A program made the position numbers and the translations under genes. Of a DNA stretch of 64,000 bases, positions 28,916 through 51,560 are shown piece after piece. Under the pieces are notes generated by a model. The model saw only the letters and a program-made list of their open reading frames with translations. It was not told where the DNA came from and made no database searches. The stretch's first letter is position 1; each line of letters starts with the position of its first letter. This stretch comes from Rubripirellula sp. (GTDB lineage: Bacteria; Planctomycetota; Planctomycetia; Pirellulales; Pirellulaceae). The stretch covers positions 1,216,001 to 1,280,000 of the forward strand of contig OZ244207.1 of assembly GCA_965216875.1 (NCBI GenBank). The letters run 5' to 3'.

Positions 28916-30258
<1,343 letters not shown>

Positions 30259-43534: not shown

Positions 43535-44395
43535 CTACTTTTCGATTGGCACGCCGTCTTCCTTGCCCCACTGCGACCAACCGCGAACGTAGACCTTGAC
43601 TTTGGGATATCCAGCGAGCTCTAGAGCGAAAGCCTCGACCGAGGCTCGACCACCCGACTGTCAGTAACAGACCGTGGTCTGTTCGGGCTCAATCCGGTAT
43701 TCGCGAAAGAGTGCGTCGAGCTGTTTGCGAGACTTGAATCGGCCGTCGTCGGCAATCAAGTGCGTCCACTCAAGGTGAGTCGACTTGGGCACACGCCCCG
43801 CTTTGAATTCGCCATCACTGCGAGTGTCGACGACATGGAATTCATCACTCGTGTGCGATGCGTTGACTTCATCCAAATCGGCGACACGATCCGTTTGGAA
43901 TTCGACGACAAATTCGGTCGCTGCAACGGTTGGGGTTTTCGGTTCGATTCGTAGGTTCGCCTTGGTCCAATGATCCCAGCCACCATCGAGCAGTGCGACG
44001 TTCTTGACACCGACGTATTTCAGTAGCCACCAGATGCGCGCCGAGTTTGAGATGTTGTCGCCATAAACCACGACGCGACTGGTGGAGGTCACGCCAATTT
44101 CACCAACAAGTTTGGACCAATTTGCCGAATCGTTGAGCCCGTTTGGAGAAGTTGCCAAGCCTTTCCAGACGCCGATGTCAACTCGATGGGCACCAGGGAC
44201 ATGCCCCTCGCGGTAGTTATCCTCACTACGAACATCGAGCACAACCAAGTCGCCCGAACCGAGTGACTGAGAAAGTTGCTGAACCGATACGAGCATTTTT
44301 CCTCGGTCTTGTGAAGGTGCTTGCGCAAACGTCAGCCCCTGGGTGAAGAGCAAAGTCACAGCGGCAAAGGGAAAAAGTAGTTGATGTGGATTCAT
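43535..44395 (-). CDS. secreted two-domain rhodanese/sulfurtransferase with in-frame UGA at the catalytic position (probable selenoprotein)
   Basis: frame continues VCY-TGA-QSGGRASVEAFALELAGYPKVKVYVRGWSQW...IEK-TAG; GHVPGA and LLDGGW motifs. Confidence 0.8.
43631..43646 (-). promoter_or_regulatory. candidate bacterial SECIS hairpin
   Basis: AGCCUC-GGUC-GAGGCU stem-loop starting 14 nt after the UGA at 43661-43663. Confidence 0.6.
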
Positions 44396-44817: not shown

Positions 44818-44950
44818 TGCCCCTTTGAGTAGCTGGTTCGCAGATGCGGCCAAGACCGCGTTCACCTGAATTGTAGCCGGACATTGCAGCGTCGTTAGAC
44901 GCACGGCTCGAGGACTTGTCTTTGCCCGCAGGTAGGACCAGTGGTGGTGG

Positions 44951-45790
44951 ACCGCAGATGGACGCAAATGAACGCAGATGAATGCGATGCCGAGGGGGAG
45001 TGAATCGAGCAAGGAGGTCGATAAGAGGATCGCCGTTCGCACCCTTCTTGGCAGTTTTTTTGACACCATCTGCGTGTATCTGAGTTCATTTGCGGTCTGG
45101 TGTCTCGTTAGACGGACAGGTGTTCAACCGCAGATAGACGCAAATGAACGCAGATAAAATGCGAAGCCGAGAGGGAGTGAATCGAGCAAGGAATTCGATG
45201 AAAGGATCGCCGTTCGCACCCTTCTTGACAGTTTTTTTGACACCATCTGCGTGTATCTGAGTTCATTTGCGGTCTGGTGTCTCGTTAGACGGACAGGTGT
45301 TCAACCGCAGATAGACGCAAATGAACGCAGATAAAATGCGAAGCCGAGAGGGAGTGAATCGAGCAAGGAATTCGATGAAAGGATCGTCGTTCGCGTCCTT
45401 CTTGGCAGTTTCTTTGACACCATCTGCGTGCATCTGAGTTCATCTGCGGTCTGGTGTCTCGTTGGAGCGAAGGTCGGTGGACCGCAGATAGACGCAGATT
45501 AACGCAGATGAATGTGAAGCCGAGAGGGAGTGAATCGAGCAAGGAATTCGATGAAACGATCGCCGTTCGTGCCCTTATTGGTAGTTTTTTGACACCATCT
45601 GCGTGCATCTGAGTTCATCTGCGGTCCCGGTGTCTCGTTAGACCGACAGTTGGTGAACCGCAGATGGACGCAAATGGATGCGATGCCGAGAGGAATTGAA
45701 TCGAACCAAGAGATCGAGAGCAAACGCATTTCATGTTCTCATTCTTGAATCATTCGATTTGATCTGCGTCTATCTGAGTTCATCAGCGGT
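44951..45790. repeat. tandem array of five ~177-bp palindromic units
   Basis: units start at 44951, 45127, 45304, 45481 and 45657; arms accgcagat(g/a)gacgca.. and ..atctgagttcat(c/t)tgcggt. Confidence 0.95.
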
Positions 45791-51186: not shown

Positions 51187-51560
51187 TGGAGGCGGCGGGA
51201 ATCGAACCCGCGTCCCGCGATGCGTCCACGATGGCGTCTACGTGTGTAGTCGAGCTATTTTGGCTTCCGAGGAAACCGATTCACTCACCACGGCGCTGCC
51301 CGACAGGCTCCGCCGCTCGCTAACTCGAATCTTGGTTTAGCCGGCCGCGTCTCGAGTAGGACGGTCGACGATCCAGAATTGCGACGGACATTCAGGCGAC
51401 TCTGGCGATCCCCATCAGTCCGGGCTACCTGTTCTTAGGCGGCCAGCTGAAGATTTTCATCTGCAACTAAAAGTTTCGATCAGATTTTTACGTGGCCTTC
51501 TGATCAACCACGACACGCAACCATCGCTTCATGTCATCCGGTCGAATCCAGATCGCCCCC
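51187..51560 (-). ncRNA. ssrA: tmRNA; tag peptide ADENLQLAA* at 51435-51464
   Basis: GGGGGCG..GGATTCGAC 5' end, GGGTTCGATTCCC..CGCCTCCA 3' end with a G3-U pair, tag ending LAA. Confidence 0.96.

Follow-up and report, generated by a model that had tools for sequence, protein, structure and literature searches.

A two-domain rhodanese gene with TGA at its catalytic codon

The 64,000-nucleotide stretch of Rubripirellula sp. DNA analysed here (the window; assembly GCA_965216875.1, contig OZ244207.1, positions 1,216,001 to 1,280,000) carries on its minus strand a rhodanese gene with an in-frame TGA, which is predicted to be decoded as selenocysteine (Sec, U). The start codon ATG (44395–44393) lies in a four-nucleotide overlap (ATGA) with the TGA stop end of the upstream gene, which encodes a PD-(D/E)XK (GxxExxY) protein. 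The open reading frame (ORF) is closed by the TGA and ends in E-Q-T-T-V-C-Y, and the public gene call for this gene, P0122 (244 aa), likewise ends at residue 244, directly before the predicted Sec codon. When the TGA is translated as U, the same frame continues with Q-S-G-G-R-A-S-V-E-A-F-A-L-E-L-A-G-Y for 41 codons in total up to a TAG, and the C-terminal catalytic loop is intact. This bears out the original prediction, made from the letters of the DNA, that the frame runs on past VCY into a complete rhodanese C-terminus. A second, 98%-identical assembly (P0002) carries the same TGA.

A Pfam search of the window protein returned two Rhodanese stretches (E 4.4e-36), and a phmmer search against solved structures aligned residues 34–287 to tandem rhodaneses, including 8k55 (2.7e-29) and 1uar (4.3e-29). 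Further matches among the solved structures were E. coli SseA (1urh), Azotobacter RhdA (1e0c) and E. coli YnjE (3ipo/2wlr), and these matches fix the fold of the window protein. In the alignments to 8k55 and 1uar, the TGA is opposite the catalytic Cys of Y-C-R-I-G-E-R-S-S, which is the position that had been assigned to it from the sequence motif. In comparison with the solved Cys-type tandem rhodaneses (8k55, 1uar, 1urh, 1e0c, 3ipo/2wlr), the window protein has by sequence the same fold and domain order (E 1e-22 to 3e-29) and a catalytic residue in the same C-x4-R type loop. However, all of these enzymes use Cys, none possesses an extra Cys at position −2, and the identity is about 30%.

Table 1. 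Features of the rhodanese gene in the window and Sec machinery of the genome. Window positions count from the first letter of the stretch; rows for the machinery refer to the whole genome.
Feature	Position	Strand	Basis or remark
Full selenoprotein coding sequence, putative	43535..44395	minus	286 codons including the Sec codon, then TAG 43535–43537; translated with TGA=U
Predicted signal peptide	44324..44395	minus	By inspection; residues 1–24, possible cleavage after T-F-A
N-terminal rhodanese domain	43961..44287	minus	PF00581 best stretch, residues 38–146 of P0001; no Cys at catalytic position
C-terminal catalytic rhodanese domain, approximate limits	43559..43861	minus	Second Pfam stretch; 1uar domain 2 aligns to residues 182–287
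Cys codon TGT, two residues before the Sec codon (C-Y-U)	43667..43669	minus	Translation
TGA, predicted Sec codon	43661..43663	minus	Catalytic position; TGA in 46 distinct orthologous sequences, TGT/TGC in 28
SECIS-type hairpin	43624..43655	minus	Lower stem, 2-nt bulge, 7-bp upper stem (43647–43641 with 43636–43630), GGUC loop 43640–43637
selA			412.9 bits, cut-off 22.8
selB, full-length model			343.5 bits, cut-off 242
selB, wing-3 domain			55.7 bits, cut-off 23.2
selD	G000:C1:325282-326163 (L004)	minus	249.3 bits, cut-off 125
tRNA-Sec, anticodon UCA	7,784,436-7,784,530		ARAGORN; Rfam RF01852 71.5 bits, cut-off 47

Selenocysteine machinery of the genome

The genome is a single contig of 8,264,643 bases, in which selA, selB and selD are adjacent minus-strand genes at about 325–331 kb. 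A search for selA, selB, selC and selD had been proposed together with the original prediction; selA, selB, selD and tRNA-Sec were all found with scores above the curated cut-offs (Table 1). The outcome named beforehand as speaking against a selenoprotein, namely a genome lacking this machinery combined with Cys in all close orthologues, was not seen. The frame holding the selD match measures 749 aa compared with about 350 aa for plain SelD, and may encode a fusion protein.

Two other genes indicate that the machinery is in use elsewhere in this genome. A SelW-like (Rdx) gene (G000:C1:4983994, minus) contains one in-frame TGA in the motif C-A-A-U, and a molybdopterin-enzyme or FmdB-like ORF adjoining the sel cluster (G000:C1:333089, plus) contains one in S-L-U-H-G. 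The GGUC hairpin of the rhodanese was not seen in the post-UGA folds of either. A genome-wide scan for TGA followed by a hairpin with a GGU loop gave 41 candidates, mostly with chance-looking frames, among which the rhodanese alone stood out.

TGA and Cys codons alternate among orthologues

The related-genome set comprised 41 genomes including that of the window (G000), and matches were accepted at E ≤ 1e-20. Eleven of the 41 were matched, and 3 of the 12 matching places contained one TGA, in G000, G033 and G034, which represent three different families of the order. All three TGAs lie at one codon, in the context V-C-Y-stop-Q-S-G-G-R. The orthologue from the same genus (Rubripirellula sp., G002) reads V-C-Y-C-Q-T-G-G-R with TGT at this codon. 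SelA and SelB are present in G033, G034 and G002; since G002 has both, its Cys is a gene-specific replacement and not the result of losing the Sec trait. In a class-wide sample, 101 of 401 genomes were matched at E ≤ 1e-40, mostly by Cys forms at 33–45% identity, and TGA occurred in G000 only and in none of the other 100.

A protein database yielded 426 matches at E ≤ 1e-30, and the C-terminal ends of the best 120 were sorted. Sixty-one of these end exactly at CY, 56 carry C-x-x-G-x-R and 3 end otherwise. Ending at CY is what a gene caller produces at this TGA; with 61 of the best 120 of 426 proteins cut at the same place, an entire planctomycete enzyme clade is therefore mis-annotated as truncated.

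For the comparison at the DNA level, 45 loci from species-representative genomes and 62 from metagenomes were taken. The active-site codon was located (for loci from L007 onward) by the pattern x6-[C/stop]-x2-G-x-R followed by an ALE-like motif; rows were kept with at least 30 nt before and at least 66 nt after this codon, and distant homologues lacking the pattern were left out of the counts. The resulting 87 rows (TGA in 55, TGT or TGC in 32) correspond, after deduplication and removal of a spurious out-of-frame match (L129), to 46 distinct TGA forms and 28 distinct Cys forms. The alternation of TGA and TGT/TGC among orthologues that the original prediction had proposed to look for was thus found. 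Forty-five TGA forms are complete at the 3′ end, and each of them reads on for a further 40–50 codons.

A SECIS-type hairpin follows the UGA

A hairpin resembling a selenocysteine insertion sequence (SECIS) begins 13 nt past the UGA, and its loop GGUC, which is also the loop of the E. coli fdhF SECIS, begins 20 nt past it. The lower stem comprises 6 bp in the window sequence, and the minimum free energy (MFE) of the element is −15.7 kcal/mol. The 6-bp stem with a GGUC loop that had been noticed 14 nt downstream of the UGA is the 7-bp upper stem without its terminal G·U pair. The published bacterial SECIS model has a loop of 3–9 nt, an upper stem of 4–16 bp, G at loop position 1 or 2, a distance of 16–37 nt from the UGA and an MFE ≤ −7.5 kcal/mol (PMC13188914). 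The window element agrees with all four published constraints, having a 4-nt loop that starts with GG, a 7-bp upper stem, a 20-nt spacing and the MFE given above. It also shares the UGA, the 20-nt distance, the small apical loop beginning with G, the 7-bp upper stem and the bulge below it with the SelB-dependent intragenic SECIS of the E. coli fdhF paradigm, following the bSECISearch consensus summarised in the same source (PMC13188914). No essential difference from this paradigm was seen, and the window SECIS is an ordinary proximal bacterial one.

Codon choice within the hairpin is nearly frozen in TGA forms. Codons +6 to +9 after the UGA, which make up the hairpin core and loop, are GCC in 45 of 45, TCG in 46 of 46, GTC in 45 of 46 and GAG in 46 of 46 TGA forms, so that 182 of 183 synonymous choices are identical, compared with synonymous entropies of 1.0–2.0 bits at flanking codons of the same forms. 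In contrast, Cys forms encoding the same residues vary in their codons (for example GCC/GCG/GCA/GCT and GTC/GTG), with entropies of 1.70 bits at +6, 1.28 at +7 and 1.44 at +8, and 0 bits at +9 (GAG in 4 of 4). All five core pairs are complete in 44 of 46 TGA forms but in only 8 of 28 Cys forms, and the GGUC loop is present in 45 of 46 and 8 of 28, respectively.

The RNAalifold consensus consists of a 4-bp lower stem, a 2-nt bulge, a 7-bp upper stem and the GGUC loop. Pair 18–33, which joins two third-codon positions, is the only freely variable pair (A-U in 29, G-C in 6, C-G in 1 and unpaired in 10). Seven double changes were seen at this pair, and none of 500 shuffles reached seven.

Two further positions of the TGA forms attracted attention. 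The two codons ahead of the UGA (43664–43669 in the window) are near-fixed at their synonymous sites, with TAC in 33 of 33 and TGT in 29 of 31. Codon +4 is GGA in 33 of 46 TGA forms compared with 5 of 25 Cys forms, which places an A in the bulge. These preferences may reflect constraints of the UGA context or of contact with SelB.

Phylogeny of Sec and Cys forms

A quick maximum-likelihood tree was calculated from 114 rows (37 Sec, 77 Cys) with the catalytic position replaced by X. TGA forms entered it only with at least 205 upstream residues and a closed 3′ end, which removed nine of them. One clade of 49 rows (Shimodaira–Hasegawa-like approximate likelihood ratio test, SH-aLRT, 99) takes in 36 of the 37 Sec rows together with 13 singly scattered Cys rows. 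Outside it only Cys forms were found, apart from the Sec row L136, which is placed there without support. When L136 was forced into the clade, the likelihood was better and the constraint was not rejected by the approximately unbiased test (p-AU 0.66); the data thus permit a single origin of Sec.

On the best tree, the Sec/Cys label must change 14 times or more, and 5 times or more if only well-supported branches are counted. Because the root of the tree was not inferred, gain and loss are formally indistinguishable, and the Cys rows nested singly among Sec rows are most simply read as repeated Sec-to-Cys reversion. Among the Cys forms, L117 keeps an intact hairpin; in the same-genus form L008, S-to-T and E-to-D changes have abolished two core pairs. 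The window protein groups with L008 and two Sec forms from marine metagenomes (support 95).

A Cys residue next to the predicted Sec

Among the 46 distinct TGA forms, 31 read V-C-Y-U, 13 read [V/I]-T-C-U and 2 have no nearby Cys, so that 44 of 46 carry Cys at −2 or −1. On the tree, a Cys at one of these positions occurs in 35 of 36 Sec rows and 9 of 13 Cys rows inside the clade, and in none of 65 rows outside it. This distribution fits a hypothesis in which the neighbouring Cys serves as a selenenylsulfide partner of Sec. The partner role stays at that level because a test on 5 independent pairs (sign test p 1; a test without power) did not support it over common descent alone, and the vicinal Cys is taken as a clade trait only.

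Predicted export signal

The N-terminus of the window protein contains a hydrophobic core (best 10-residue Kyte–Doolittle value 2.25) and a T-F-A / A-Q-A site, while its n-region has neither Lys nor Arg. Of the signal peptide named in the original prediction, the hydrophobic stretch is present, and the call as a whole is made by inspection and from orthologues. Most orthologue N-termini examined show, again by inspection, a K/R-containing n-region, a hydrophobic core and an A-x-A-type site, and two orthologues, L053 and L121, have lipobox-like motifs. By eye, the rhodanese family is probably exported, and the window protein is likely to be exported as well. YnjE of E. coli is also extracytoplasmic.

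Relation to known selenoprotein and rhodanese families

Selenoproteins of the rhodanese family exist in the literature, as the original prediction had stated. COG2897, "Rhodanese-related sulfurtransferase", was presented as a new predicted selenoprotein family in the Sargasso Sea survey of 2005 with 3 sequences (PMC1088965) and again in the Global Ocean Sampling (GOS) survey of 2008 with 1 sequence (PMC2398784). Passages in reviews of 2022 and 2026 list the COG2897-type Sec rhodanese, the latter as "form 4" with the motif UxxG. The window protein shares with the family, as described in these passages, the two-domain SseA/COG2897-type architecture, Sec at the catalytic Cys, U-x-x-G (here U-Q-S-G), a SECIS just past the UGA and many Cys homologues. 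The agreement with the family is one of architecture and motif, and the COG assignment itself is inferred. The window gene is very probably a further representative of a selenoprotein kind already predicted by computation, with a canonical proximal SECIS.

In contrast to the 1–3 sequences given in the passages on the published COG2897 surveys, the clade found here is large (61 of the best 120 of 426 database matches), and the same passages make no mention of planctomycetes, an export signal or a Cys at −2 or −1. Selenoproteins and Sec machinery were described in 2016 in marine, Pirellulaceae-type planctomycetes; the S9 Table of that paper contains 13 candidates and no rhodanese, its supplementary files 13 and 14 not having been searched. 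Within the portions of the selenoproteome literature consulted, rhodanese selenoproteins of planctomycetes were not found, and the same holds for the extent of the planctomycete clade, for export signals in it, for the neighbouring Cys and for a within-genus Sec/Cys pair. The original prediction had held that an exported selenoprotein of this family in a planctomycete would be notable. This was overrated, given that the family was predicted in 2005, that planctomycete selenoproteins were reported in 2016 and that this genome has other selenoprotein genes.

Several other rhodanese families were also considered. The best NCBIfam match was NF008557 (SseA-type; positions 39–278 of 281, E 4e-35), the 3-mercaptopyruvate sulfurtransferase SseA equivalog, for which 121.3 bits against a cut-off of 250 indicate a shared architecture and not an equivalog. 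The ExtH model for a rhodanese of selenite/tellurite reduction (NF040901) gave 66.2 bits against 200. NF041203 (rhodanese_LYCAU), a single-domain model of 126 positions whose best stretch lies on the N-terminal domain, gave 59.3 bits against 115. Because no NCBIfam model reaches its cut-off, membership in the SseA, LYCAU-rhodanese, ExtH and TsoB families was rejected. The LYCAU rhodanese, "form 3" (CxU) in the review passage, shares with the window protein a rhodanese domain and a Cys two residues before Sec. As LYCAU is a different, single-domain family, the common C-x-U spacing would be convergent.

Gene neighbourhood and other observations

The neighbours of the rhodanese gene are two sulfatases, one on either side, the PD-(D/E)XK GxxExxY protein, an aldo-keto reductase and a methyltransferase. 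Upstream of the PD-(D/E)XK gene, at 44900–45730 on the minus strand, several near-identical short tandem ORF-like repeats (MVSKKL and MNSDTRRWCQ units) look like a repeated element. Elsewhere in the window lie a transfer-messenger RNA (tmRNA) gene with the tag ADENLQLAA (51187–51560, minus) and a tRNA-Arg(ACG) gene (30183–30258, minus).

In two soil sequences (metagenome or metagenome-assembled genome; L054 and L123), the Sec-rhodanese frame is open upstream into a signal-peptide-bearing sequence resembling an S-adenosylmethionine (SAM) methyltransferase, with no stop between; these may be a fusion or adjacent genes that share a frame. In the genome of the window, ARAGORN reported a tRNA with anticodon CUA, labelled tRNA-Pyl (G000:C1:3282034-3282109, minus), and a 477-aa EF-Tu/SelB-like frame holds one in-frame TAG (G000:C1:390949-392115, minus). 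These could be an amber suppressor with its target or two unrelated artefacts. ARAGORN also listed a tRNA of unassigned identity with the four-base anticodon tttc (G000:C1:3442059-3442132).

Weighing of the alternatives

The locus has a TGA at the catalytic codon, an open frame beyond it and a hairpin; its genome encodes Sec machinery, and a large clade of orthologues keeps both TGA and hairpin. Taken together, the window gene very probably encodes a Sec-decoded two-domain rhodanese, in which the UGA at the catalytic codon would be read by SelB and tRNA-Sec under the guidance of the GGUC-loop hairpin. A number of observations weigh against this conclusion or restrict it. The 86-nt fold is ordinary in energy (z −0.50) and is matched by 58 of 200 shuffles. 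Of 2000 synonymous recodings of the window sequence, 70 equal or exceed it in stability, and 27 of 28 Cys forms also pass the MFE criterion of ≤ −7.5 kcal/mol. Because of this z value, and because Sec and Cys forms cannot be told apart by the MFE threshold, fold energy was dropped as evidence and synonymous-site conservation was used instead. Since the core stem is invariant it is silent on covariation, which rests on the single pair 18–33. Furthermore, the peptide A-S-V-E-A partly predisposes the sequence to the hairpin, as the 8 of 28 Cys forms with complete core pairs indicate; the partial palindrome that it favours may in turn be the origin of the SECIS. The TGA forms share kinship, so that their 46 sequences are not independent events, and the window protein has a long terminal branch (0.68). 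The comparison of gene neighbourhoods gave no conserved neighbour that hints at a substrate, the upstream genes differing between orthologous loci. The result of the independent-pairs test, the missing basic residue in the n-region and the judgement of export by eye belong here as well.

The hairpin might accordingly be nothing but a by-product of the conserved peptide G-G-R-A-S-V-E-A, with recoding directed by another element. The occurrence of this peptide in Cys forms, some of which complete all five core pairs, and the failure of the MFE threshold to separate the two groups agree with this view. However, codon choice at +6 to +9 is fixed in TGA forms but varies where Cys forms encode the same residues, two core pairs are gone from the same-genus Cys form, and both the position and the loop of the hairpin fit the published model, which makes a mere by-product very unlikely. 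Even less probable, to the point of being almost negligible, is a pseudogene, namely a Cys-type rhodanese whose TGA came from a simple nonsense mutation or from faulty assembly. Such an origin would suit the TGT of the same-genus orthologue, the 100 other matching genomes of the class-wide sample without TGA and the long branch of the window protein. On the other hand, the same TGA occurs in 46 distinct sequences from many assemblies, the frame beyond it is open in every complete case with the C-terminal catalytic loop intact, and synonymous sites are frozen in TGA forms only. An assembly error is ruled out because the independent assembly behind P0002 and 45 other sequences carry the TGA.

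Sec insertion competes with termination. The UGA could therefore mostly terminate translation to give the 244-residue product, or be read through without selenium by a near-cognate tRNA (Trp or Cys), the Sec form being minor and selenium-dependent. This would leave the strict conservation of the last 41 residues and the SelB-type hairpin unexplained, and the genome contains complete Sec machinery as well as other TGA genes of classic selenoprotein families. We consider this alternative improbable, though less so than the other two.

Proposed mechanism

If the gene is decoded with Sec, the ribosome would pause at the UGA, and SelB-GTP-Sec-tRNA(Sec) on the apical stem-loop would insert Sec to yield a 286-residue protein; the other product would be a 244-residue stub without the catalytic loop. 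The signal peptide would probably send the protein to the periplasm. There, the selenol would replace the catalytic thiol in sulfane-sulfur transfer, with sulfur carried as a Se-S intermediate instead of a Cys persulfide. In an oxidising compartment, Sec could be protected or resolved by a selenenylsulfide bond to the Cys at −2. For this chemistry as a whole, comprising both the Se-S sulfur transfer and the selenenylsulfide with the upstream Cys, we see a slightly less than even chance.

A more far-reaching idea, which at present seems rather unlikely, is that the planctomycete clade constitutes a distinct catalytic variant. It would be an exported tandem rhodanese with a Sec-Cys selenenylsulfide (C-Y-U or T-C-U) and, instead of simply carrying a persulfide, would act as a periplasmic Se-S redox enzyme whose substrate is sulfane sulfur or selenium/tellurium oxyanions. 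The C-x-U spacing would have arisen independently in LYCAU.

Implications

Our understanding of recoding itself is left unchanged, since this SECIS follows the canonical form and the family has stood as a prediction since 2005; the additions are modest. Nevertheless, a predicted extracytoplasmic sulfur-transfer enzyme is added to the selenoproteome of a marine Pirellulaceae bacterium. In addition, the interleaved Sec and Cys forms amount to a natural experiment, which includes a same-genus pair that differs at this very residue and in which the hairpin has decayed in the Cys form, and which can be used to ask what selenium buys a rhodanese.

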